In this document: one piece after another, positions 946 through 40,071 of the stretch | How positions within the stretch are numbered: position 1 is the stretch's first letter | How the letters are laid out: every line of letters starts with the position of its first letter | Assembly: GCA_963514005.1 (NCBI GenBank) | Contig: OY740787.1 | Span: 70,866,001 to 70,930,000 of the forward strand | Origin: Raja brachyura | Lineage: Eukaryota | Reading direction: 5' to 3' | Length of the DNA: 64,000 bases | Made by a program: the position numbers and the translations under genes | Notes under the pieces: model-generated | The model's database searches: none | What the model was told of the DNA's origin: nothing | The model's input: the letters and a program-made list of their open reading frames with translations, nothing else

Positions 946-2344
946 CATGCCCTCCATAATGTTTGGGACAGAGACCATTATTTATTTATTTGCCTCTACT
1001 CCACAATTTGAGATTTGTAACAGAAAAAAATCACATGTGGTTAAAGTGCACATTGTCAGATTTTATTAAATGGTATTTTTTATACATTTTGGTTTCACCA
1101 TGTAGAAATTACAGCTTTGTTTATACATAGCCCCCCATTTCAGGGCACCATAATGTGAGGGAAACATGGCTTCACAGGTGTTTTTAATTGCACAGGTGTG
1201 TTAATATGTCTCCTTAATGCAGGTATAAGAGAGCTCTCAGCACCTAGTCTTTCTTCCATTCTTTCCATCACCTTTGGAAACTATCAAAGAAGCCATTATG
1301 AGACTGAGAAACAATAGAACTGTTAGAGACATCAGCCAAACCTTACGCTTACCAAAATTAACTGTTTGGAACATCATTAAGAAGAAAGAGAGCACTGGTG
1401 AGCTTACTAATCGCAAAGGGACTGGCAGGCCAAGGAAGACCTCCACAGCTGATGACAAAATAATTCTCTCCATTCTATGCCACAATGTACTTAAAAGTGC
1501 AACCATGGTTCTGGAAAAAGGTTTTGTGGACAGATTAGATTAAGATTAATTTATATCAGAGTGATGGCAAGAGCAAAGTATGGAGGAGAGAAGGAACTGC
1601 CCAAGATAAAAAGCATACCACCTCATCTGTGACACACGGTGGTGGGGATGTTATGGCCTGAGCATGTATGGCTCACTTATCTTCATTGATTATACAACTG
1701 CTGATGGTAGTAGCATCATGAATTCTGAAGTATATGGACCCCTTATCTGCTAAAGTTCAAACAAATGCCACAAAACTCATTGGCCTGCAGTTCATTCTAC
1801 AGCAAGCCAATGATCCCAAACATACTGCTAAAGCACCAAAGGAGTTTTTCAAAGCTAAAAAATGGTAAATTCTTGAGGAGCCAAGTCAATCACCCGATCT
1901 GAACCCAATTGAGCATGCCTTTTATATGCTGAAGAGAAATCTGAAGGGGACTAGCCCACAAAACAAGCATAAGCTAAAGATGGCTGCAATACAGGCCTGG
2001 CAGAGCATCACCAGAGAAGATACCCAGCAACTGGTGATGTCCATGAATCGTAGACTTCAAGCAGTCATTGCATGCAAAGGATATGCAACAAAATACTAAA
2101 CATTACTATTTTCTTTTACATTACATTGCTTTGTCCCAAACATTATGGAGTCCTGAAATGGGAGAACTATGTATAAACACTGCTGTAATTCTACATGGTG
2201 AAACCAAAATGTATAAAAATGGCCTTTATTAAAATCTGACAATTAAGCACATGTGAATTTTTCTATTACAAATCTCAAATTGTGGAGTTCAGAGGCAAAT
2301 AAATAAATGATGGGTATTTGTCCCAAACATTATGGAGGGCACTG
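946..2344 (+). mobile_element. Tc1-like DNA transposon, IR/DR type, with decayed transposase
   Basis: ~215-bp terminal inverted repeats (tgccctccataatgtttgggaca...tgtcccaaacattatggagggcactg) with inner direct repeats near 1141-1166 and 2132-2155; TA at right end; transposase fragments GTGRPRKT, NDPKHT, SQSPDLNPIE. Confidence 0.93.
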
Positions 2345-8399: not shown

Positions 8400-8602
8400 C
8401 TGCAATAAATCTGCGAGCCGTCCTCGGCGAGGTAGCCATCGTAGTGAGCATTGAGCGCGTCTCCTCTCCTGCTCTTCCGATGGCAGTCGTCCGGCCTGTA
8501 CACAACCTCTATCTTCACTTCTTCTTTGGTGTCGGCGTCAACCTGATTAAAGACGGCAGAACAAGCCAACAAAAAGAGGAGTAAGGCGGCAGGACGGTTC
8601 AT
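8400..8602 (-). CDS. FKBP7: FKBP7 exon 1 (signal peptide and start of PPIase domain)
   Basis: MNRPAALLLFLLACSAVF...VKIEVVYRPDDCHRKSRRGDALNAHYDGYLAEDGSQIYC; donor AG|GTACC; synteny with PLEKHA3 and TTN. Confidence 0.93.
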
Positions 8603-9170: not shown

Positions 9171-9569
9171 ATGAACATAACAGAATATGTAAACAACGTC
9201 ATCTGTAAGCAATATAATAAAGGGAAAAAAAGTTTCGTGTGCAGATATATATATATATATACACACACACACCTACAATGAGTTACTCCAGCTTTTTGTG
9301 TCTATCTTCGCTTTAAACCAGTATCTGCAGTTCCTTCCTACACATGCATTAATTCAGGGAAACAGCAGGGAATAATTAAAAAGACGCAAAGTGCTGGAGT
9401 CATTCCAGGCACACACAAAATGCTGGAGCGACTCAGCGGACCAGGCAGCATCTCTGGCCAAAATCGTTTGGGTGGGGGTGGGGGTGGGGGTCGGGTCGGT
9501 TCGAGGCCCTTCTTCAGACCTAGTCTGGCACTGCCTTCCTGACGTCTAACAATTAACATGTCAATCAGT

Positions 9570-9960
9570 GGCTCTGGCACCGCCCACGGCGGCGGGGGGT
9601 TGGGACCATCTCGCTGGTCGATTACGTGGTGACGTCACGTCTCTGTCCGACGTGACTGCGCAGGCGGCGCGGGGTGAGGGGTGAGCGGGCAGCGGCCGCT
9701 CCGACGGCCTGTCTGTGTCGCAGGCGCCGGTTCCCGGGACGGGCCGCCATGCTGCCGAGCGCAGGCTCCGCCCGTGCCGCCGGCGCCGCGCTGAGGCCGC
9801 GCCTCCGGCTACAGGCCGGGCCCGCCGCTTGCGTGTGAGGCGGCGCCGTCGCGCCGTGTGAAGATGGAAGGAATACTTTACAAGTGGACCAACTACCTGA
9901 CGGGTGAGGGAGGCCCCGGACCCGCACCCGCAGCCGCAGCCGCCTTGTCCCTCCCTCCCT
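9570..9960 (+). promoter_or_regulatory. CpG island / PLEKHA3 promoter and 5' UTR
   Basis: Very high GC/CpG; palindromic CRE TGACGTCA 9630-9637; NRF1-like TGCGCAGGCG 9657-9666. Confidence 0.8.
9864..9903 (+). CDS. PLEKHA3: PLEKHA3 (FAPP1) exon 1
   Basis: MEGILYKWTNYLT-G, the FAPP PH-domain start; donor G|GTGAG. Confidence 0.95.
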
Positions 9961-10029
9961 CGACTCCTGACAGGGACTACACTCTCCATCACTCCCTCAT
10001 CGGCTCGTCCCCTTTGTCCCTTCCCACTC

Positions 10030-10680
10030 GCCCATCTCCAACCTCTGGCACTGCACCTGAAACTGTAGGAGATGCAACACTTGCTCCAACACTCCCTCAC
10101 CACCAACATCCACGGGACTAACTAACTAAACAGCCCTTCTAGGTGAGGCAGAGATTCACATGCACTTCCAACCTCGTTACTACATTCTCTACGACATCGG
10201 TCTTGGGATATGGTATTCTCTACATCTGCCAGACCCAACGTGGATAGATGTGTGATTGTTCTGCAGAATTCCTGTGCTATCTGCAATGGCCATCTTGACC
10301 CTCTAGTTCCATGTCATTTCAACTCCCCCTTCCTTTACTACACTGATTTGTTGCCTTCAATCTTCCAGGGTGAGACCCAGTATAAAACAGATCCACCTGA
10401 GCAGCTACGACCCAAAGTTATAAAAACTGAACTTTCCAATTTCAAGTGAACCCCCCTCTGTTCACCCAAGTTCAGTCCCCTTTTATTCACCTTTTCAATC
10501 CTATCTCCTCCCCCACCTGGTTCCTAATGACTATCATCCACATATCTATCTGGTTTGGATTTTTCTTTCTTGATTCACCTTTTCTCTCTCTACTCCCCCC
10601 ACCCATCCCCATAGCCCCATCTGCCCGTCATCCTTGTCTCTCCCATTCTCCCCAAATCTGATTGTAGCTATGATCATCCT
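10030..10680 (+). mobile_element. Decayed Penelope-like GIY-YIG remnant
   Basis: aggtgaggcagagattcacatgcacttccaacctc... resembles 15548-15870. Confidence 0.55.
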
Positions 10681-10701
10681 ACCTCCCCTCCCACTCGAGT
10701 T

Positions 10702-10979
10702 GCACAGTGGCGCAGCTGTAGAGTTGCAGCCTTACAGCGCTAGAGACCTGGGTTTGATCCTGACAATGGGTACTGTTTGTACAGTCTTTTTTTGACTGCG
10801 TGGGTTTCTCCAGGTGCTCCGGTTTACTCCCATGCTTCAAAGACATGCAGGTTTGTAGGTTAATTGGCTTTTGTAAATTGTTCCTATTATGTTGGATAAA
10901 ACGAGTGTGTGGGAGAAGCTGGTCGATGTGGACTCGGTGGGCCGAAGGGCCTATTTCCATGCGATTTGTAAACTAAACT
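10702..10979 (+). mobile_element. V-SINE (HE1-like), near full length
   Basis: tRNA-like head, V core gtgggtttctccaggtgctccggtttactccc, CR1-like tail gggccgaagggcctatttcc, (taaac) end. Confidence 0.85.
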
Positions 10980-11106
10980 CTCACTTCTATATACTGGCTA
11001 TTTTCACTTGACATTTTTAGTCCTGCGCCTGGTATCTGTCCTGTGAAAATTGCTACTTCGAAGAATTAAGTAGTAATTCTGATTTGTAAATGTTATTTCT
11101 CCTCAG

Positions 11107-11223
11107 GTTGGCAGCCTCGTTGGTTCATACTGGATAATGGAATACTTTCTTATTATGATTCTCAGGATGATGTTAACAAAGGCAGCAAAGGGAGTATCAA
11201 AATGGCTGTTTGTGAAATTAAAG
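11107..11223 (+). CDS. PLEKHA3: PLEKHA3 exon 2
   Basis: [38 protein letters not shown]; CAG acceptor; GC donor (AAG|GCAAGT). Confidence 0.93.
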
Positions 11224-11526
11224 GCAAGTGATAAACACTTTTCCTAAATTAAATCAGTTAATATTAAATGAAATAATTTTGACCTAGATTATTTTATCTA
11301 CTGTAAAGAAAATACCACCATCCTTAATCTTCAGCAGATTTGCATAGATATTTTGTTTAGGTCTTAGGGTAGGATATCCAGGCACTCTCAGAACATCAAA
11401 AACTGATTGTTAACTTTTTTGTAGAAATTAGAATACTGACAGTATTTTTGTAACTATAACTTTTTCGTGAGTTTAGTTGTATTTAACTATGGGATCACTT
11501 CATCACTTGTTCTTCTTTAAAACTAG

Positions 11527-11682
11527 TACATTCAACAGATAACACACGAATGGAGCTAATTATTCCTGGAGAACAACATTTCTATGTCAAATCAGTCAAT
11601 GCTGCTGAGAGGCAGAGATGGTTGGTGGCACTAGGCAGTTCGAAAGCATGTCTTGCAGATACAAGGACTAAAAAAGAAAAAG
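11527..11682 (+). CDS. PLEKHA3: PLEKHA3 exon 3
   Basis: [52 protein letters not shown]; AG/GT. Confidence 0.95.
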
Positions 11683-12400
11683 GTAACATTAAATACAAGC
11701 AGGATAAAAACATACATAAAGTAAATTCAAAGCTACCTGCTGTAACTTTATTTGATGAACTTATATTAATAATTGAGCAATAAGCAAAGTGGTGGAGGAG
11801 TCATCGAGTCAGGCAGCATTTATGGAAGAAAGTGGACAGATGACATATTGGTTCAGGACTCTTCTTCATACTCGTATAGTCATAGAGTCATACGCCGTGG
11901 AAACAAGCTCTTGGGGCCAATTTGCCCACGCGCCTCATCTTCATTAGTTTCACCTGCCTGCTTTTGGCCCATATCCATCCAAACCTGTCCAATCCATGTA
12001 CCTACCCAAATATTTTTTAAATGTTGTGATACTCCAGACAGTTTTAAGAAGAGTTGCAACCTAAGACGTTGTCTGTCCACTTCCCTCCACAGATGCTGCC
12101 TAGCATGCTGAGTTCCTCCAGCACTTTACTTGTTGCTCAAGAAAGTAAATACAATTCTTAACAACCCTGTTGGTAAACAGTAAAAAATATTAATTGCACT
12201 CTAACTGTAAAATAATTAATTTATAAATTATACATGGTTTGCAAAATATAACAAATACATTGTCAGCCTAATACTGGTGTTGGTCTATGTCAGATTATTC
12301 GGCGGGTCTTGCTCATAATTAACTATGTCGACGAATTTTGGTGTATAAATACGTTTCACTATTTCATTCGTTCATATTGTGTATTATTTTAATTCTGCAG

Positions 12401-12537
12401 AAATCAATGAGACCATTGAATCTCTCAGAACTAAGATGTCCGAACTCCGGTTGTATTGTGACTTGCTAATGCAACAAGTTCATACAATACACGAGTCTGT
12501 TAAACAGGATCAGCCAGGTTTGACGCCACCTGCTGAG
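12401..12537 (+). CDS. PLEKHA3: PLEKHA3 exon 4
   Basis: [30 protein letters not shown]...PPAE; AG/GT. Confidence 0.95.
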
Positions 12538-12799
12538 GTATGGTATCAGAATATATATATAGAATATATGTATTTGTATGTATTTATTATTATTTATAGC
12601 TAGTATCTGATGGTTAGAAGATCCTAAATACAAATTAAAACGTGTGTGCAGTCTGGCAATTCTCTCTGCTTTAACTAGACTGAGTGACTTATAAAAATGC
12701 ATTGAAATTACAATGGTACCAGACTATCTCTTGCACCCAAGAAAATTGTGTTCATTCACCCAATGCCAATATTCCTATGTTCGTCCATCCAATTTAATC

Positions 12800-15059: not shown

Positions 15060-15344
15060 AGTTTAGTTTATTATTGTCACATGCACTGAGGTACAGTGAA
15101 AAGCTTGTTGTTGCATGCTAGCCAGTCAGCAAAAAGACTACACATGATTACATTCAAACTGTCCATCATGTACAGATACAGGACGAAGGGAATAACGTTT
15201 AATGCAAGATAAAGTACGATTAAAGATAGTCCGGTCTCTAATGCGGTTGTTGGTTGGTCAGGACTGCACTCTATTTGATGATAGGATGGTACAGTTGACT
15301 GATAACAGCATGCAAGAAACTGTCCCTGAATCTGGAGGTGTGCA
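15060..15344 (-). mobile_element. Rex1/Babar-like LINE 3' end (continues at 16245-16512)
   Basis: (tttag) tail + tttattattgtcac...aagaaactgtccctgaatctggaggtgtgc. Confidence 0.65.
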
Positions 15345-16240
15345 CCTCCACTCGCCACATCTTCCCATCTCCCCCACTGTCTGCCTTCCGCAAAGACCGC
15401 TCCCTCCGCAACTCCCTTGTCAATTCTTCCCTTCCCTCCCGCTCCACCCCTTCCCCGGGCACTTTCCCTTGCAACCGCAAGAGATGCTACACTTGTCCCT
15501 TCACCTCCCCCCATCCACTCCTTTCAGGGACCCAAGCAGTCATTCCAAGTCCGACAGAGGTTCACCTGCACCTCCTCCAACCTCATCTACTGCATCCGTT
15601 GCTCCAGATGCCAGCTGATCTACATCGGTGAGACCAAGCGGAGGCTGGGCGATCGTTTCGCCGAACACCTACGCTCGGTCCGCAATAACCAACCCCCCCT
15701 CCCGGTGGCTCAGCACTTCAACTTCCCCTCCCATTCCGTATCCGACCTCTCGGTCCTGGGCCTCCTCCACGGCCAGAGTGAGCAACACCGCAAGTTGGAG
15801 GAACAGCACCTCATATTCCGCTTGGGGAGTCTGCATCCTCTGGGCTTAAACATTGAATTTTCTCAATTCTGTTAACCCTTGCTGTCTCCTCCCCCTCCCC
15901 ACCTCTCCCTTAGCCTTCGGGCCCTAACATTCCTTCTCCATCTCCCCCCCCACCCCACCCAAGTCGCACTAGCTTCTCATTTTCACACTACAAACAGCTT
16001 ACAATGGGCTGTTTCCTTTATCTTCAATACTTTTTTGCATATCTTTCATTCATTGTTCTTTATCTCTCCACATCACTGTCTATATCTCCCGTTTCCCTGA
16101 TACCCTGACCAGTCTGAAGATGGGTCTCGACCCGAAACGTCGCCTGTCTCCTTCGCTCCTTAGATGCTGCTGCACCCGCTGAGTTTCTCTAGCTTTTTGT
16201 GTAACCCTCGATTCTCCAGCATCTGCAGTTCCTTCTTTAA
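15345..16240 (+). mobile_element. Penelope-like retroelement 3' portion: GIY-YIG endonuclease and terminal repeat
   Basis: ORF FTCTSSNLIYCIRCSRCQLIYIGETKRRLGDRFAEH...HFN...LEEQHLIFRLGSLHPLGLN (LIY...YIG); upstream Cys motif PCNRKRCYTC; hammerhead motif in tail. Confidence 0.9.
16114..16141 (+). ncRNA. Minimal type I hammerhead ribozyme core
   Basis: CUGAAGA-U-GGGUC-UC-GACCC-GAAAC-GUC; possible stem I GACCAGU/GCCUGUC with 2x2 mismatch. Confidence 0.65.
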
Positions 16241-24329: not shown

Positions 24330-24790
24330 TATACCTACTCCCTCACATCCATTCAGGATGTTCACACGCATCTCCTCTAACCCTATCGTATCTGTTCCCG
24401 AAGTGGCTTCAGTGAGACCAAGCGTAGATATGCCAACTGTTTTGCTAAACACTTGCGCTTGGTTCACCAAGGCTTACTAGATCTCCTGGTTGCTGACCAT
24501 TTTAATTCCCATATTGACCATTCTGTCCTGGGCCTTCTCCATTGCCAGAGTGAGGACATATGCAAACTACAAGAACAGCACCCCATATTCCGCTTGGGTT
24601 GCTTACAATCCAAAGGTAAGAAAATGTAATTCTCCAATTACATAAATACATCAACCTGGTCATACCTACAACCGGGTAATTAACCTAGAAAAACCCCAAC
24701 CTCCTCTCTTCTCCCGCACCTCCCTATGCCCCACCTTGATGTGCACCCATTTCTTCTCTTCCACCTATATATCTTTATATGGCAATTCTA
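24330..24790 (+). mobile_element. Decayed Penelope-like GIY-YIG remnant (tail resumes ~29125-29320)
   Basis: gtgagaccaagcgtag...ttgccagagtgagg...gaacagcaccccatattccgcttggg matches 15628-15830. Confidence 0.7.
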
Positions 24791-24794
24791 CATC

Positions 24795-27700
24795 ACTATT
24801 AGATTGGATTCGTGTTACCCATCCTGACTGAATCTTAACATCTGGTGTTTTGTCAGACTGCTTTAGCGATCATTCTGCTATCTTCTGTGTGTGGAAGATT
24901 AAACCTTCCCATCTTCCTCCTAGATTTATTTGTGTCAGACAATTTAGAAAATTTAATTATGATAATTATATGCATGACCTGATTGCAATAAACTGGGACA
25001 GGTTTCAACTTATACCAACTGTTGAGGATGCCTGGAACTATTTATACACTGAAGTCACAAGAGTTATTGATAAGCATGCCCCCTGGAGAGAAATAAAAGT
25101 CAAGGGAAAACATTTACCATGGATTAGTGGTGATTTGGTCAACCTTTTTAATGAGCGGGATAAAGTCTGGAAGACTTTCAGGGAAACAAAGGACCCTGCT
25201 GATTGGGAAAAATATAGGTCCTTAAGGAATCAGTGTACGACAAGAACACGTAATGCTAAATCAAGTCATTTTAAAAAACATCTTTCTGAAGATATGCATA
25301 ATCCAAAAAAGTTCTGGAAAAGACTAAATAATGTTCTTAATAAATCAAATCAAAATATCAGCACTCAGATTTGGGTCAATAATGACATAATTCAGGACCC
25401 TGCTGTTATATCCAATGCTTTCAACCATCACTTCCCCACTGTATGTAGCTCTACTGTATTTGACTCATCTATTATATGTGACTTTCCAGCTACCTCTACA
25501 TGTAGAAGCTCTTTTTCTTTTCAAAAAATAAAACCTGTTGACGTTCAACATGCTATTAATGAATTAAAGGATGATAGTGGATCTGGACCAGATGGTATTG
25601 AGACTAAATTCATTAAGTTAGGAGCTAATATTCTAACGTACCCATTGTGTGACCTGTTTAATTTGTCCTTCTCAACTTGTACCCTCCCTCTCGCATGGAA
25701 GTGTGCCAATGTTACTCCACTGCATAAGGGAGGTGACCCACAGGATATTAACAATTACCGCCCCATCTCAATTATCAACTCGGTGGCTAAAATCCTCGAG
25801 AAACTAGTGTTCATCCAGCTATCATATTACGTCTCAACTTTCAACATTCTATCTCCATGCCAGGCTGGGTTCAGACCTAATCACTCCACAACTACAGCTC
25901 TGTTAAAACTCACCAGCGATGTGTTTTCTGCTTCTGAGGATGGTAAACTCACCGGTGCCATCTTTCTTGATTTAACCAAGGCCTTTGATGTTGTTGACCA
26001 CTACCTACTGCTTGATAAACTTTACTCAATTGGTCTTTCTCAAAACAATCTACTGTGGTTTAACTCGTACCTTCATAACAAACGCCAATGTGTTACCTTT
26101 AATGGAAGTCAATCTAATTCCTTAATTATTGAGAAGGGGGTCCCGCAAGGTTCGTCTTTGGGACCACTCCTTTTCTCTATTTTCATATACGACCTCCCTA
26201 ATATTTGTTCTGACTGTCAAACACAACTATATGCTGATGATGCAGTGCTATATACATCTAGTACTAACAAGTCCAAAATTGAAAGATCCCTTCAATGAGA
26301 TCTTACTTCTGTTCAGAAATAGCTATTATTTAACAAATTAATTTTAAATAAAAATAAATCATGCAGTATGTTATTTGGTACCAGACAAGGCCTTGGTAAT
26401 TCTGCAGATCTGACTATATCATTTAATGAAGGATCACCATTAGAACAAGTATTGGACTTCAAATATCTTGGAGTTTGGCTCAACCCATTTACACAGCATA
26501 TTGAGACGATTACTAAAAAACTCAGCTGTAATCTAGTTGTTCTTTACCGCCATATAAATTGTTTCACCTTTCAGATGAGAAAAATAATTGTCTCTCAACT
26601 ACTACTACCAACACTGGATTATGCTGATATTGTCTATCAGAATACATTTGATACACATCTTCAACCCCTCAATGTAGTTTATAATAGTCTCTGCAGATTT
26701 ATTTTAAGGTGTCCATATCTAACACACCACTGTTCTATGTACGAAACTCTAAACTGGTTATCCTCCCACGCTCGAAGATGCTACCACTGGTTCCAGTTCA
26801 TCTTTAAATGCATCCATCTCAATTACCCTTCTTATTTAAAACAAGACCTATTACTATACACACCCTCATATTCACTAAGACATATTCAGCAACCCTTCTT
26901 TTTCATTCCAAGAATTAACAAAGAAATTGGGAGACGTGCATTTAAATTCAAAGCTCCTTCTGACTGGAACACTCTGCCTAGTACCATAAGAACTAATAGC
27001 TCATTTTGTCTATTTAAAAATACACTTTTACCCTTACTTATAAAACCATGTACCTGTTTCTAGTATTAGAGTCTTCGAGCTCCTTTATCTAGCTTGCTCT
27101 GTGTGTGATCATTTGTCATAGCTATTGTTAGGTATGTTACAAAACTTACCTTGAGCAGCGCTGCAGTTCTGCCGCTCCCCGACTTTGGCGCCTTTCAGAG
27201 GTGGGCGGGCTTAAAGTGCCGTTTTTCTTCAGACTGGTCAAATCGATCATGTCGGGCGATTTCGTTGCGGAAGAAAAATCGCTCCGACATTTCATTAATG
27301 AAGATATTTTTAAATTACGCTAGATTATTTATTATCTAGAGTAATTTAAAAATCACCTTCAAAAGCCGTGAGCGCCGATAACGGGAAGGATTTTGTGTAG
27401 GGGAGAAAAAAAGGTACACAGTTTATTTTTATATTAAAAGTTGGTTTTTATGGAGGCTTTAATAATATTTTCATGTTGCGAAATGGGGTCCAAAAAAAAT
27501 GTATGAACCGGCTGTATTTTTCATACTGACTTCACCGCAAACCGCAACGTTCCAATCCACCGCATTCCACTAAAACCCACTCGCTAGTTGATTTAAATGG
27601 CCATTAATTTACAGGCATTAAACACTAAATTACTTCCATTTGGCCCAGAAATTCATGAAAATGAGATTTAAAAATTATGTTATATTGTGGATTATTGGGT

Positions 27701-31055: not shown

Positions 31056-31354
31056 TTAAATTGATCTAATTTTAATATTTACAGTGGCAGAATCTGATCC
31101 AAATTCATTTGAGAGTCTTAAAGTGTAGCGTCCTGCATCGTTTTCTTGGACACCTGTAATAATGAGTGTTGTTAGATCATCTGTAGTTTCAATGTGGAAT
31201 CGGCCACCTTCTACTTCATCAGAAAGAGGTTTTCCTCCACGTGACCATTTTACTTGAGGCAGGGGTTCACCTGAGAAAGCACAGGCCACTGTTAAAACTT
31301 TTCCTTTCTCGATTGTGATATCCGATGGTAAAGCTTCGATTTTAGGAGAAGACC
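31056..31354 (-). CDS. TTN: Titin last exon (Mex6, Ig M10)
   Basis: PKIEALPSDITIEKGKVLTVACAFSGEP...DSATVNIKIRSI*. Confidence 0.97.
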
Positions 31355-31454: not shown

Positions 31455-31730
31455 CTTTAATACTACCGCTAATCATTCTGCCAGTACTTGCTTCCAAATG
31501 ACTCATACTGGAATGCTCCATAAAAGAGCTGGAGCTCGATGATATCCTTGATTCTTTAAAAGATGACATACTGCTTGAAGACATACTGGCAAACTTAACT
31601 TCACTCATGCTGCTGCTGGCCTCTTGCTTGGACATTTGCAATGTTTTGGAAGAGAAATGTTCCTGCATCATAGCGGAGGCACTGGCACCCGATTCCAAAA
31701 CTACCAATTTTGAAGGTTCTTCAAGGAGAC
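31455..31730 (-). CDS. TTN: Titin Mex5 (is7)
   Basis: LLEEPSKLVVL...SKQEAS...SEVKFASMS, Ser/Met-rich; 276 bp, symmetric phase 1. Confidence 0.93.
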
Positions 31731-31899
31731 CTGTAGAACATAGAGTATCACGCATCACACGATAATTGATGAAGGAAAAACATCAAAATATTTGCATCTA
31801 GTTTAAATTTTAAATCGTGTACAGTATTTTCGAGTGAGACTTTGTTCTATGTTGTACTAAAGGATGCTCTATAAAATGCCAAGATAATAAACAGAGATT

Positions 31900-32988
31900 A
31901 AGATGTGGTGGGGTTTCTTAAATGTGTATATTTTAATGCTAGGAGCATTGTAAGAAAGGTGGATGAGCTTAGGGCCTGGATTGACACCTGGAAGTATGAT
32001 GTTGTGGTGATTAGTGAAACATGGTTGCAGGATGGCTTTGATTGGAAACTAAATATTCCAGGATTTTGTTGCTTCAGGTGTGATAGAATTGGAGGGGCAT
32101 GAGATGGAGGTGTTGCATGAGGTGGAGGTGTTGCATTGCTTGTCAGGGAAGATATTATAGCAGTGCTTTGGCAGGATAGATTAGAGGGCNNNNNNNNNNN
32201 NNNNNNNNNNNNNNNNNNNNNNNNNNNNNNNNNNNNNNNNNNNNNNNNNNNNNNNNNNNNNNNNNNNNNNNNNNNNNNNNNNNNNNNNNNNNNNNNNNNN
32301 NNNNNNNNNNNNNNNNNNNNNNNNNNNNNNNNNNNNNNNNNNNNNNNNNNNNNNNNNNNNNNNNNNNNNNNNNNNNNNNNNNNNNNNNNGGCCTTTATAA
32401 ATCAGAGCATTGAGTATAGAAGTTGGGATGTAATGTTAAAATTGTACAAGGCATTGGTGAGGCCAATTCTGGAGTACAATGTACAATTTTGGTCACCAAA
32501 TTATAGGAAAGATGTCAACAAAATAGAGAGAGTACAGAGGAGATTTACTAGAATGTTACCTGGGTTTCATCACCTAAGTTACAGAGTAAGGTTGAACAAG
32601 ATAGGTCTTTATTCTTTGGAGCACAAAAGGTTATGGGAGGACTTGATAGAGGTCTTTAAAATTATGAGAGGATAGACAGAGTTGACGTGGATAAGCTTTT
32701 TCCATTGAGAGTAGGGAAGATTCAAACAAGAGGACATGATTTGAGAATTAAGGGACAAAAGTTTAGGGGTAACATGAGGGGGAACTGTGTGGAATGAGCT
32801 TCCAGTGGAGTGGTGAAGGCAGGTTCGATTTTATCATTTAAAAATAAATTAGATAGGTATATGGATGGGAACGAAATGGAGGGTTATGGTCTGAGTACAG
32901 GTAGATGGGACTAGGTGAGAGCAAGAGTTCGGCACGGACTAGAAGGGCCGAGGTGGCCTGTTTCCGTGCTGTAATTGTTATATGGTTA
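31900..32988 (+). mobile_element. CR1/HER1-like LINE spanning assembly gap
   Basis: Endonuclease N-terminus (CVYFNARSI...ISETWL) before the gap; ALVRPILEYNVQFWSP and 3' tail after it. Confidence 0.9.
32190..32389. other. Assembly gap (200 N)
   Basis: Run of N. Confidence 1.
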
Positions 32989-33067
32989 AATCAGATTCAC
33001 GGATATCAAAATTGTGTAATAGCAAGTATAATAATTAATTTATGACACCAAGCACCAATTAACTTAC

Positions 33068-33221
33068 CAAGTACAATCAAAGAGGCTGTTGCTGAACATT
33101 GTCCATGGAAATTCTTTGCCGCTGCTGTATATTTTCCACTGTCAGAGACCGCTGTGCACCTAATCTCTAATGTATACATGTTTTTCAAACGATTGATTTT
33201 TATATTTCTTGAGACTGCAAT
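33068..33221 (-). CDS. TTN: Titin Mex4 (second half of Ig M9)
   Basis: IAVSRNIKINR...DSGKYTAAAKNFHGQCSATASLIVL; 154 bp; AG/GT. Confidence 0.95.
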
Positions 33222-33298
33222 CTGAAATGTAGAATAAGTCAAATTATTATTTGTATAACTAGATAAATGAGCAAAAACTAAAATAATTAATTACTTAC

Positions 33299-36200
33299 AG
33301 GTTGGTTGTCTTTTAGCCATTCAACCTCTGGAGAAGGATCCCCTGAGATTTCACAATTAAATGTCACCTTTTCTCCTTCATTGACATTTCGGGATTTGGG
33401 CTGCTTTATGAACTTTGGCGCATTTGATTCTTTTTGCTTAATGGTTAAATCAAATTGACATTTAACTATTCCATGTTCAGTTTTTGCTTCACAGGTGATT
33501 GTGCCTTCATCTCTGAAACTGATGGTTTTGATAGTTAAAGTATGGTCACTTCCAGATACACCATATTGATAATCTCCTGAATTGGCAAGCTCAACACCAT
33601 TTGCAACCCATTTCACACTGGAAGCATTTGGTATGCTGGCCTTAAGAATGGCCTTTTGACCATCAACTGCATTAATCTGTACACGTGTAGCTGTAATCTC
33701 TGTGTACGATGTTTTCAGTTCCTTTTTCACAATTTGCTCCTGAACTACCTTTGCTTCTCCAAGCGACTTAGCTACAGTTTTTTTCTGAGTAGCTTCCTTT
33801 GATTCAGCTAACTTGGTCACTTTGTTGACAATGTTTTTGAATACTTGACCAACAAAGGAAAAAGTTGTTTTGGAAACTCCTCCCTCACCGGTGATTTCAC
33901 AAGTATATTCTCCTTCATCAGTTTCATTAATTCCATAGATACTTAAGGTGTAGACACCATTTGCAGCATATTTCAATTTGTAATGACTGTTTTCTCTTAT
34001 TTTACATCCATCCTTAAACCAAGTTAATTCTTTCACATTCAGAGCTGTGCTTTCAACTGCACATGCTAGTTTTACAGAACCATCGTCAGAAACCTCAGCT
34101 TTCAAAGCTTGAGAAATCTTAGGTGGAGCACTTGCCGGGATCTGCACTCGTTCTGCTGAAGGCGTCCTGTCAGCTGGTGGAGATTTAACTCTTGGAAATG
34201 AAGTGACTGGTTCTGGAGATTTGATTCTCTTGGAAGTTTTTGTTCCCTCAAAAGACTTTGTTTGAGGTTCAGGGACCTTTCGCATTGGCTCTGCTACAAT
34301 ACCCACTTCCTTTACTCCTGCCCTTCGTATTGTCAGAGTAAAATGTGCTTCTTGTTTGCCTTCAGAATTTTCTACCATCACCGTATAGCTTCCTTCATCA
34401 GATGATTGAACTGATGTAATTGTAAAGGTAGATTTATACTGTGTTGTAACAATAAGTAAACGTTTAGAAGTTGTAATAATTCTTCCCCCATGCATCCATG
34501 TCACAGTGGGTGTTGGCTCACCATCAGTGCCACAAGAAAATCTAACAGATTCTCCCTCTGCTATTGTGACTGATTGTGGTTTTGTTAGTATTTTGGCAGG
34601 AAGAGTTCGCTTAGATGCATAAGCTGCCTTTTCCTTTGAATCATAGAGACCGTAGCTGATCGATTCCTTTATTTCGGATTCTTTTGTTCTAGTTTCTTTT
34701 GTCTCTTCAAATTCTGCAGATTTTCTAATTGTGGATATTTGGTAAAAATCCGTTTTTGTCAGTTCAGGTACAAGTGATTTTGGTGCTTCCTCATCTCTAC
34801 GGCGAGACAAGTAGGTAAGGTAGTCACCTCCTGTAATATCTAATGTTGCATAGTCAGAGGCCTCACCTTTATAATTGGAACAAACAACACGATAGGTTCC
34901 ACTATCTTCAGCTTGACAATCCAGAATTTCCAGTGTCAGGACACCAGTCATATCAGTGAAACGATACTTGTCACCCTCTTGAATTTCTTTACCATTGTGG
35001 TACCAACTAACTTCAGATTTTGGCTTGCACAGAATATTTAGAGTAAATCTTGTATTTTGACTGCGCGGGATGCGGTGAGAACGCATTCTCAAAGTTATAC
35101 GTGGACCATGGTCAAGGCTGAAAGGCTCTTGAGTAATAACTTCATATTTCCCTTCTGAAGTTCTTTGAGATTTTAAAGCAGTTTTCATTGACTCATATCG
35201 TGAAAAGATGTCAAATCTAGCAGTTCTTTCAAAGCGTGAAAGTGAGCTTTCTCGAGACACAGGGCTGGGTGAACGAGGCCGGGTTCTCTCGGGTGTGGGT
35301 GAGCGTCTTTCTAAACCTTCACTTTCAAATTCGGTAGGATGTGTTCGAGATCTGATCAGTTCAGAAACAGGTCGCATTAATTCAATGTAAGTTGGGGAAA
35401 GTGATCTCCTTCTCCTAAGAAGCCTTGAGACAGATGGGGATTCTCGACGAACATATTGCTTAACCTCGATGGCTTGTTGTTCTTCTTCTTCTGATTTTGA
35501 TACAAATATCTCTCTTTCTCGTCTTCGTTTGATCCTTAATTTTTCCTCATGTTCCATGTACTCAAGTTCTTTTCGGTAGGTAGACAATCTCTGAGTGGTA
35601 GCAACTGGCCTCAGGAGCTCGTCGTCTTCTATGTCTTCCTCCATTCTTTGTCTTTGCTTTGGAGGTTTATAAACAGCTTTGTCATGTCGCTGTCTGAGAT
35701 CTATATAACTAGGGCCAGCTTCATATTTGGAAGGGATGTGATATTTCTGGTAGCCGATATATTTTTCCTCTTTTTGTGCTGCGGCTAATTGTGTCTGTTT
35801 AGATCTTTGCTGAAGGGATAATAATTCAAAACCGGGAGGGCTACGGCGCGGAGGTGATGCAGAAAATCCTAATTCAAGCTCCTCCTCAAGACGTAATCTT
35901 TCTTCCTCCACTCTTTTCATTGAGAGATAGTCATCAACAGGTAGAAGTAAATCGTCTTCTGACATGTCCCCAAGTGATCGCCTTCTTGGTCTGTAATACA
36001 TTTCGTAGTCAGGTGATGGGGTTCGCCTCCGAGCTGGTCTTACTGTTTCCAGATCATCTTGTGACAGTTTTGGAATTCGCCATTTGGGTTTATACTGATC
36101 GGTAAAGCGCGGCAGTGGCATAACGTAAAACTGCTCCCATCTTGACAGACGAATTCGTTTTGGCCGCTTTGTTACAATTCTTTCCAATGGTGCTGGCATT

Positions 36201-39174
36201 TCATATTGGTCTCGCAATTTCCTATACCATTTCATGTCTGACAAAGGCACAAACTGTTTAATATCTTGATTTTCTTCAATTACATTTGCTGCATGAACAC
36301 GAGGTTCTGGAATTTCATAAGGCATTCGAAGTCTCTTTTCTTCCTTTCTCTTTTTGATCTCTGAAATTTCATATTCACCTTTTACGTTCTTGGTACTGAC
36401 AGCTGGTTTGTACAATATTGCAGCTTCTTGCAGAGCTTGCTTTGCTACAGCGTTCAGTGGAACAGATTCAACATTTGCAAGTATTTCTGCCATTCTAATT
36501 GTTTTGTCAATTTGTTTCTGAACATGTTGCTGCCGATCCTCCTCACTCTTGTATTGACGCTTAACATAGGTCATGCGTTCAACTTTCAGATACGCTTGGC
36601 AACTTGCAGATCCAGCACTGTTGGTAGCAGTGATTCGGTAAATGCCAGAATCTTCAGGCAAAGTATCCCTTACATGCAAAACATAGTAGTCCAGACCTTC
36701 ATGTACAATTTCAATATTTGGACATAATGACAAAGCCTGTCCATCTTTCTCCCATTTCAGAGTTGGTGCTGGTGTGCCAGACACTCTACACTCAAAACGA
36801 ATGTTCTGGCCTTCTATACATTCTGCATTTGCCAACAAACGTTTAAACATTGGTCTCAAAGTGCTGTCCGCTGCAGGTGGGCGAGGTATTACAGTTAGTT
36901 TGGCTTTGCAGCTGTCGTCACCATATCTATTGCGAGCTTGTACTGTGTACTCAGCATCATCATCGTTTGTTAACTTGTGAATTATCAGTTGATAGAGACC
37001 TTTGTCAGACACAAAAGTATATTTTTTCTCATCTTCACCAGGCTTAATCCTTTGTCCAGATTTCAACCAAGTTACTCTTGGGTCAGGGTGAACAGTTATA
37101 GTAACACCAAATCTGACATCTTCTCCAAGGTAGGCAGTTTGGTTGTACAAAGGCAGAGTGAATTCTGGTGGTCTTTCAAGAAGCCTCATTGCATCCACTT
37201 TACGTTTTACTCTTTTTACAGTACGTTGCATAAAGAATTTACGGATTTCTCTTACACCGCTCACAAATAGTTCTACATAGGAACTATCTTCACCATAGTC
37301 ATTTACTACTTTGCACCTGTATGTACCATCATCTGTCTTGTTTATGTCTTTAACATACATTGTTGCCAAACCATCCTGATAGGTAATTTCATACTTGTCA
37401 CTGCATTCAAGTTGCCTGACGCCAAAGTACCAAGTGACTTGGGTAGATTGATCGTAGTTTGCAATTCTGCAGGAATATTTAACATGACCGCCCTCTTCAG
37501 CAGTTGCATGCATGATCTGTCCGGCAAGTGGACCAATTTCAATTGAAGATATTTTAACTTTAGCAACTGTAACTCCCCTTTGAGCTCTAACAGCTCCACC
37601 AGAGGAAATTCGAGCCACGGAAACAACAAGGTTCATTTCCTTCTTTATTAAGGTCTGATAGTACCTTCTGTGTCTCAAAGTCTTAATTACTTTGGTGCTC
37701 ATTTTCTCTGTCTTCTGCTTCAACCATGTATGTTCAAGAGCATCAGCAGCTGTCATCCGACTCTTCCTTTCCTTGACCAACAGGCGATCAATGAAGTCGA
37801 GAGCTTCAGTTGTGATGTCCTTGAAAGCTTCATCCTCAAAACTATATTCTGCTCTAATAATGTTATCAATAACCTGCTGGTTTGTTTCAGCAATAAATGG
37901 ATTCAGACCACTGAGTAATACATACGCAAGTGTACCGACTGACCACATGTCTGTGGCTGCATTGACCACATCATGCTGGTGCAGTTCAGGTGCTGCGTAC
38001 TCTGAGGCAGTGAACTGAATTCTAATGCTGTCACCCGGTGTGAGTGCCCTGGCCTGACCAAGTTCAACAATCTTAATAAAAGAGCTTTTCCTTGTGGTAT
38101 AGATTATATTGTCTGGTTTGATATCAAAATGCGCCACATTCTGACTATGTAGAAATTCCAATGCTTCACAGACTTGGCGAATGTAGATGATAACTTCCCT
38201 TTCAGTTAGTTCAAAGGTAGAAGTATTAATGCGCTCAAATATGTCAGCACCTGAAATAAACTCGAAGATCATGACTAATTCTTCAAGGCTCTCAAATGAT
38301 TCATGAAGCCATAGGATACTTCTGTGTCTAGCAATATTGAGAATGTCAATCTCTTTCTTCACAAGTACCTGATCAGCACCTTTGATTTTCACAAACTTTG
38401 CCATGTATGTTTTCTTGCTTATGTTTTCCATACAGCGATGAACAATACTAAATTGTCCACGTCCTAGCTCTTCAGCAAATGTGTAGCGGGAATGAAGATC
38501 TTTAATAGTAGAATGATTAGCTTTGCCTTTAGTAATTGTCATTGTTTCATCGACCTCTTCATCATAGTTTATAACTCTTGACTTGTCTTCTTTTGTGACT
38601 ATTGGATCAGTTGGCTCTGATGGCTTGCTCTGTCCAAACTTGTTTTCAGCAATCACACGGAACTGGTAGCTAGTTTTGCCAAATAGATTTACAACAGTGT
38701 AATGTGTATCACGTGACTGTGCTACGCGTATCCACATCTCTGCAGTTGTTGCACATTTCTCAATGATGTAGTTCATTACTTTACTTCCACCATCATTAGC
38801 TGGAGGACTCCATGTTAAATTGACAGAATCACGTGCAATGTCACTGACTTTAATTCCTCTTGGCATGTCAGGTACGTCTGCGACGTCCAGTTCAACTGTT
38901 TGCTGATCTATGCCAAATCTGTTCTTGGCACACACAACATAGAAACCAGCATCTTTTATGTCAACTCCATTCGGGAACACCAGAGATGTAAAAGATCTGG
39001 TGACAATTACTTGAAAATGGCCGTTGTTATCAATGAGATCTTGTCCTTTCTGCCATGTAATTACGGGATCAGGTCTTCCACTGAAAGGAATCTTAATGCT
39101 TACAATTTCACCACGGAGAGCATGAACTGCACCCATGCCTTCCAGATGTTTGGGTAGTTGAATCTTGGCTGGGA
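33299..39174 (-). CDS. TTN: Titin large exon: A169-A170, kinase, M1-M6, M8 and first half of M9
   Basis: Continuous ORF from VPAKIQLPK through kinase (YMAKFVK, HFDIKPDN, ELG) to EVEWLKDNQP; donor CCT|GTAAGT. Confidence 0.96.
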
Positions 39175-39237: not shown

Positions 39238-39888
39238 AGGAAAGAACTGCAGATGCTGGTTTAAATCAAAGGTAGACACAAAATGCTGGAGTAAATCAGC
39301 ACGAAACAGGCAGCATTTCTGGAGAGAAGGAATGGGTGAAGTTTCGGATCGAGACCCTTCTCCAGATTGGTGTCAGGGGAGTGGGCGGGACAGAGACAGA
39401 ATGTAGTCAGAGACAGTAAGACTGGTGGGAGAACTGGGAAGGGGGAGGGGATGGAGAGAGAGGGAAAGCAAGGGCTATTTGAAGTTAGAGAAGTCAATGT
39501 TCATACCGCTGGGGTGTAAGCTACCCAGGCAAAATATGAGGTGCTGTTCCTCCAATTTGCGCTGGGCCTCACTCTGACAATGGAGGAGGCCCACAACAGA
39601 AAGGTCAGATTGGGAATGGGCAGGGTAGTTAAAGTGCTGAGCAACCGGGAGATCAGGTAGGTTAAGGTGGACTGTGCGGAGTTGTTCAGCGAAACAATCG
39701 GCAAACCCGCACTTGGGCTTGCCGATGTACAGGAGTTGACACCTTGAACAGCGGGATACAATAGATGAGGTTGGAGGAGGTGCAAGTGAACCTCTGCTTC
39801 ACCTGAAAAGACTGTTGGGGTCATTGGATGAAGTTGAGGGGCAGGTAAAGGGACATCTCCTGCGGTTGCAGGGGAAAGTACCTGGGTT
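39238..39888 (-). mobile_element. Penelope-like element 3' portion in titin intron
   Basis: Reverse complement homologous to 15455-16240 (GIY-YIG remnant and terminal repeat); hammerhead core mutated (CUGGAGA). Confidence 0.85.
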
Positions 39889-40071
39889 ACTGAAAGTTAA
39901 TGAGTTTGAAATTGGTCTTGGAAAGCAGAGCAAAACTGGGAGTAGTGAATTCACAGCCTACTTTATACCCCACATGATATTTTCTTTAATTCACTTTGAT
40001 ATAAAAGAAGAATGAAAAACAAAACCAGGCAACTTTTAAAATTTGGAAACAAAGAACTGCAGATGCTGGTT

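Follow-up and report, generated by a model that had tools for sequence, protein, structure and literature searches.

Titin lacking the M-band domain M7 in a fish genome: a probable in-frame deletion with counterparts in other vertebrates

On the minus strand of the window, by which we mean the whole 64,000-nucleotide stretch analysed, lies the terminal, 3′ part of a titin gene; the initial annotation had not given the strand. Judged from its domain sequences, the gene is the M-band region of vertebrate titin (TTN). An open frame of 1972 codons from stop to stop (39205-33290, minus strand) contains an exon with its acceptor before 39174 and its donor after 33299. These sites give exactly 5,876 bp, the length of the single exon from A169 into M9 that the initial annotation had described. 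The features of the region are as follows.

33299..39174, minus strand: fused M-band exon (Mex1+Mex3) with A169, A170, kinase, M1-M6, joined linker, M8 and the first half of M9 (open frame, splice sites)
37541..38503, minus strand: titin kinase region (PDB 1tki match, E 8.6e-161)
34820..37528, minus strand: M1, M2, M3, is2 and M4 (PDB 2bk8, 6hci and 3qp3 matches; domain tree)
34325..34600, minus strand: Ig domain M5 (66% to primate M5, score 132 bits; next-best domain 60 bits)
33848..34126, minus strand: Ig domain M6 (56% to primate M6, score 119 bits; M7 scores 38 bits)
33785..33850, minus strand: predicted amphipathic helix capping M6, the kept start of is5 (AlphaFold, myomesin superposition, hydrophobic pattern)
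33698..33847, minus strand: M6-M8 linker of 50 codons, in the place of is5-M7-is6
33437..33697, minus strand: Ig domain M8 (57% to primate M8, score 108 bits; next-best domain 38 bits; M8 clade SH-aLRT 99)
33068..33421, minus strand: Ig domain M9, interrupted by a 77-bp intron at 33222-33298 (joints in spliced contigs)
33068-33221, minus strand: Mex4 (joints in spliced contigs)
32190..32389, no strand: assembly gap of 200 N, among repeats, in the M9-is7 intron (31731-33067)
31455..31730, minus strand: Mex5, serine-rich is7 (spliced in X3, X4 and X12)
31056..31354, minus strand: coding part of Mex6, M10 and stop codon (70% to primate M10)

PDB matches located A168-A170, the kinase, M1, M3 and M4 in the exon. 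When the fused exon was joined to Mex4-Mex6, the spliced M-band frame had its sole stop at its end and encoded nine Ig domains after the kinase. Their best mammalian matches were M1-M6, M8, M9 and M10, which scored 108-162 bits where the second-best domain scored 38-62, and all nine lay inside their own orthologue clades in the domain tree, a quick tree of 92 columns. In the A-band, the window aligned colinearly with a rodent record running from the A-band to M10, over its residues 2-4299 and with no gap of 25 amino acids or more. Spliced contigs showed that the three introns downstream of the fused exon are retained, and the M-band of the window titin has four exons. Its is4 (34129-34324, minus strand) is short, with about 65 residues and two KSP motifs; teleost ttn.2-type records carry long KSP arrays. 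At position 31498, in Mex5, the window has A and all four runs compared have C, a mismatch that is likely an allele or an assembly base error.

Elsewhere in the window, exon-like frames lie head to head at 9864-12600 (plus strand) and about 8400-8600 (minus strand) around a CpG-rich stretch (9501-10000). Pfam gave no fitting family for them; they may resemble PLEKHA3 and FKBP7, which are conserved neighbours downstream of TTN. A LINE-type reverse transcriptase (Pfam RVT_1, E 1.9e-29) occupies 24832-27063 (plus strand) in two frames parted by a stop. Fragments at 15330-15875 (plus), 39478-39896 (minus) and 24381-24626 (plus) belong to a single repeat family, likely Penelope-type, whose GIY-YIG match is weak (E 1.7e-4) and falls slightly short of the cut-off. 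Frames at 1229-2096 (plus strand) are presumably pieces of a Tc1/mariner transposase.

M7 is missing from both the DNA and the spliced transcripts of the window titin. About 50 residues separate M6 from M8. Pfam found no Ig family in 33602-33901, the AlphaFold model of the M6-M8 region contained no third Ig domain, and the domain tree agreed with the initial annotation, which had placed no Ig domain there. The mammalian-type arrangement, with M7 between M6 and M8 and introns around Mex2, is absent. The proposed fusion of Mex1 to Mex3 with loss of the Mex2 introns was borne out by one open exon that was identical in genomic and spliced contigs; none of the listed runs was recorded as RNA, and the spliced contigs served in place of transcripts.

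From 24 listed runs we compared eight, representing seven coded organisms: the genomic contigs X1, X8 and X13, the spliced contigs X3, X4, X16 and X18 (19-41 kb), and X12. All are assembled contigs, as opposed to raw reads, and come from close relatives with identities of about 97% or higher. All eight spanned the M6-M8 join without a gap, and when X1 and X3 were left out as the possible source sample, the remaining six, from six organisms and six studies, were also ungapped. The assembly gap cannot hide M7, as had been argued earlier, since it sits in an intron that the spliced contigs skip whole.

A search of the same genome with rodent M7 returned generic Ig domains only (124 matches, the best at 38-42%, with 150 of 377 candidates scored), which supports the absence of an orthologue. 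For comparison, rodent and bonefish M7 are 51% identical. The top match (G000:C1542:14081-17323) was considered as a displaced M7 and rejected as a generic Ig match. It lies on an unplaced contig, where a three-Ig exon is followed by a long simple repeat; presumably this exon is the start of an obscurin-like protein. Our mammalian M7 reference matches PDB 3puc, the M7 structure according to PMC6922384.

The linker had been described as resembling is5 in its first half and the end of is6 in its second, and this reading as an is5/is6 join was right. The first 22 linker residues matched is5 in four of four M7-bearing titins, with a score reached by none of 2000 shuffles. For the other 29 residues, three of six comparisons with is6 were significant, those with bonefish, hagfish and Dallia (p 0.004-0.009); the comparisons with two mammals and tilapia were not. 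The join lies at about 33770-33795 and is not resolvable to the base. The low complexity of these linkers prevents breakpoints from being assigned to single residues, and differing linker lengths among lineages may reflect later erosion.

M6 and the next ~20 residues (33785-34129, minus strand) are predicted to form an Ig-helix unit like those of myomesin, and every titin compared that has M6, mammalian ones included, conserves it. AlphaFold (19 sequences, mean pLDDT 78) predicted a helix at model residues 94-121, confident to about residue 110; residues 115-146 had pLDDT under 50. Positions +3, +6 and +10 after M6 were hydrophobic in all 78 distinct sequences, and +13 in 94%, an amphipathic pattern conserved as in the myomesin-type module. 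The hydrophobic moment exceeded that of shuffles (p<0.05) in 47 of the 78.

When the model was compared with 48,161 chains, the top four rows were all myomesin; for the part with M6 and the helix, the Z scores were 15.4, 15.1 and 14.7, with an rmsd of 1.7-1.8 Å over 108-114 residues (for My10, 1.7 Å over 110-114 residues). The best plain Ig reached Z 14.1 over 91 residues. Foldseek ranked myomesin second and fourth, among many Ig tandems, and the phmmer match to myomesin continued past the end of the Ig domain. In the predicted model a helix comes directly after the Ig domain and packs against it, which is the myomesin-type arrangement. The titin unit is single, with no tandem array in which the helix reaches the next Ig. 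Myomesin helices unfold reversibly at about 30 pN or less, according to PMC8900313. A spring-like role of the conserved amphipathic helix in titin is predicted, and the shared fold in itself shows no function.

For the distribution of M7, 330 proteins were compared, and the rows counted below are redundant cluster members, not independent events. The sample spanned this lineage, mammals, birds, lizard-type reptiles, a turtle, frogs, teleosts and hagfish, with no named cartilaginous-fish titin and no shark, chimaera, lamprey, gar, coelacanth, lungfish, salamander or monotreme sequence among them. Both M6 and M8 were present in 40 rows. M7 was found in six of them (rodent and primate records, bonefish) and was missing from the other 34, namely two from the window, three from close relatives, 13 from birds (12 named), nine from frogs, six of lizard type and one from a turtle, the painted turtle. 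One lizard-type row is a named gecko, and of the remaining lizard-type rows three representatives clustered with birds; among the frog rows, Leptobrachium is named and one cluster includes Staurois. A further 22 mammal-type frames end within the first half of M7. The spacing from M6 to M8 was 46 residues in the window, 43 in frogs, 60-61 in sauropsids, 159 in bonefish and 228-242 in mammals. In the titin tree, the window titin fell outside tetrapods and teleosts, a position that, together with matches to elephant-shark primers, makes a cartilaginous fish the likely source. A clade check against a SPEG stretch of electric ray gave 75% and 61%, no higher than the similarity of bichir to that stretch. 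A search of the 50% representatives with the is2 stretch gave 17 matches, with no shark, lamprey or gar M-band among them.

Teleost records varied. M6 was present without M7-M9 in Eleginops and Pampus, M7-M9 without M6 in Dallia and Oreochromis, and M6 together with M7-M9 in Albula; other frames lacked M6-M7 or M6-M8. The Dallia and tilapia records (P0167 and P0274), with M7-M9 kept and M6 absent, are a mirror of the ttn.2-type records. Teleost ttn.1-type titins had at least five different in-frame breakpoints that remove M7 and sometimes M8, some of them leaving domain stubs (P0017, P0021, P0069, P0070, P0078, P0233 and P0284). For example, one 90% cluster unites P0021, with a ten-residue stub of M7, and two records that retain the first half of M7, P0323 and P0324. 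These breakpoints display the loss process in action.

In M7-bearing titins, genomic-type open frames matched M7 to residue 40 and then stopped in six of six mammalian and six of seven teleost cases; the seventh matched to residue 44. Since the frames stop after residue 40, M7 appears to be cut by an old, shared intron. A second intron presumably lies after M7. Skipping the small exon would therefore leave half a domain.

We consider it probable that the window lineage lost an ancestral M7 by an in-frame genomic deletion, and that other vertebrate lineages likely lost theirs separately. A single in-frame deletion from is5 to is6 would remove M7 together with both introns and keep the frame. 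Such a loss would be tolerated because the mapped M-band partners of titin bind elsewhere and the flanks of M7 are low-complexity spacers. In PMC6922384, FHL2 is placed at is2, Bin1 at is4, and calpain 3, obscurin and myospryn at M9-M10; the accessible text of that paper gave no partner mapped to M7.

In the window, in frogs and in sauropsids alike, the 5′ join lies near residue +21-22 after M6. The packing of the helix on M6 is predicted to set this 5′ edge of the deletion, so that losses keeping M6 would also keep about 20 residues after it; if the packed helix is real, it would account for the common edge. The different spacings (46, 43 and 60-61) fit separate events but could be erosion. 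Mediation by direct repeats was also considered: is5 and is6 are alike in mammals (p 0.034 and 0.0075) but not in bonefish (p 0.5), and for this reason we did not adopt this mechanism.

An alternative order of events begins with splicing: a donor just behind the M6 helix came to be spliced onto the acceptor of Mex3, so that M7 was skipped, and the intervening DNA was removed later by cDNA recombination or decay. Teleost ttn.2-type frames end near +21-22 at a likely splice donor, about where the window, frog and sauropsid joins lie. In most of 21 such frames, similarity is lost 22-24 residues after M6, and at that point two spliced records run on into is7. The sauropsid 3′ side starts near the beginning of mammalian is6. 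Frogs and the window, however, retain less of is6 than sauropsids, and in the teleost ttn.1-type losses the breaks fall within M7 or M8 and away from exon edges. The three remaining downstream introns also count against this order, and the helix alone accounts for the common 5′ edge. We regard it as unlikely, though the best placed of the alternatives, and prefer direct deletion.

The initial annotation had left a choice between lineage-specific loss and a later gain in bony vertebrates. Sequence comparison places M7 as ancestral: hagfish, two mammals and four teleosts form one M7 clade in the quick tree (SH-aLRT 97) with no member from the window. The hagfish record (P0221) has M5, M7, M8 and M9. 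It is one automated gene model without M4, M6 and most of is2, so we used only its M7; the absence of M6 and M4 is perhaps a model error. Its M7 is 57% identical to that of bonefish and 46-49% to those of mammals, and it stands directly before M8. A domain first gained in bony vertebrates or mammals, and absent in early jawed vertebrates, would match its absence from the window lineage, frogs and sauropsids, and the opposite reading must assume several losses. This gain nevertheless fails because M7 is in the hagfish record, and it is further contradicted by the intron position common to mammals and teleosts and by the recent losses visible in teleosts, which leave it very improbable. Read onto the accepted vertebrate tree, the data make M7 an ancestral domain that was likely lost by the window lineage, by frogs and by sauropsids, and on several occasions among teleosts. 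Loss is the part of the earlier choice that stands. To call it lineage-specific understates it, because birds, lizards, the turtle and frogs have the same M6-to-M8 fusion and M7-M9 are reported missing in zebrafish and salmon (PMC6922384). M7 is likely an old, dispensable domain that was deleted several times.

Assembly collapse or a mis-assigned Ig domain has a negligible chance of being the explanation: an assembly gap does lie among repeats 1.3 kb away, and PDB M7 is among the fold neighbours of the M8 model (Z 12.8, 20% identity), as for many Ig domains, but the eight unbroken runs refute collapse at the contig level and the domain tree, examined for such a mis-assignment, puts each of the nine window domains with its own orthologues.

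A wider proposal, which we offer tentatively and hold to be somewhat doubtful, is that vertebrate titin, including human titin, carries a single, so far unrecognised myomesin-type Ig-helix strain absorber at M6 with a deletion hotspot behind it. Among jawed vertebrates, M7 would have been lost at least four times (in this fish lineage, frogs, sauropsids and teleost paralogues), with the helix always spared where M6 stays, and the reach of the M-band would be tuned by module loss while the spring is kept.

That zebrafish and salmon lack M7-M9 is already known from PMC6922384. Loss of M7 alone and a helix after M6 were not stated in the accessible portions of PMC6922384, PMC12241362, PMC12198301, bioRxiv 2025.08.04.668337, PMC7023976, PMC7912658, PMC12854356 and PMC8900313; the older chicken and zebrafish connectin papers and Fig. 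3c of PMC12241362 were outside this scope. What appears to be new is the predicted, conserved amphipathic helix in the ~20 residues after M6, which together with M6 superposes best on the Ig-helix modules of myomesin. The loss of M7 is real, recurrent and apparently tolerated, and is neither a new system nor special to this animal. The vertebrate norm has been taken to be an M-band of ten domains. Titins of the chicken type, those of frogs and the one of this fish have nine, and mammals, the reference of the initial annotation, are among the lineages that retain M7. This pattern marks M7 as naturally dispensable, which bears on in-frame human variants there and on cross-species epitope maps of the M-band. 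The predicted M6 helix is a directly testable candidate for an elastic element of the titin M-band and, with the wider loss pattern, a point of interest to titin specialists.

Compared with the Ig-helix modules of myomesin My9-My12 (PDB 3rbs, 2y23 and 6t3o; PMC8900313), the titin helix is predicted to take the same position directly after the Ig domain. Unlike myomesin, titin has a single unit, at 20% identity, in which the helix is followed by a disordered linker, the titin side being a predicted model. In PMC6922384, M6 was modelled only on M-band templates, and the accessible text does not mention the helix.

For elephant shark connectin, four of four tested primers from PMC12241362 match the window with 0-3 mismatches of 18, a comparison that had no bony-fish control. 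The available part of that paper calls the A/M region "almost identical" to the human one and makes no remark on M7. Its primer numbers, M6 = 190 and M9 = 193, leave room for M7. The numbering could reflect retention of M7 or use of human numbering, and is a weak hint that chimaeras keep the domain.

With the mammalian M-band (M1-M10, Mex1-Mex6; PMC6922384), the window titin shares the kinase, M1-M6, M8-M10, is2, is4 and is7 in the same order, at 56-82% per domain, an intron-split M9, and separate exons for is7 and M10. It differs in lacking M7, in having four M-band exons where mammals have six, and in an M6-M8 spacing of 46 residues instead of 228-242. Zebrafish (A5X6X5) and Atlantic salmon titin, which lack M7, M8 and M9 according to the Fig. 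1 legend of PMC6922384, resemble it as working titins in which M7 is absent and M6 kept. Those two fishes, however, have also lost M8 and M9, and splicing takes their M6 directly to is7, a ttn.2-type layout that was not found in the window, where M8 and M9 are present and fused into the big exon.

Titins of birds, lizards, a turtle and frogs (P0003 cluster, P0018, P0268 and P0009), known here from database records that the papers found do not describe, also run from M6 through helix and linker to M8 and M9 without M7. Their genomic-type records have a single open frame through the join, like the window. The linkers differ in length (60-61 residues in sauropsids, 43 in frogs and 46 in the window) and keep different parts of is6, and on the species tree these are probably separate events.
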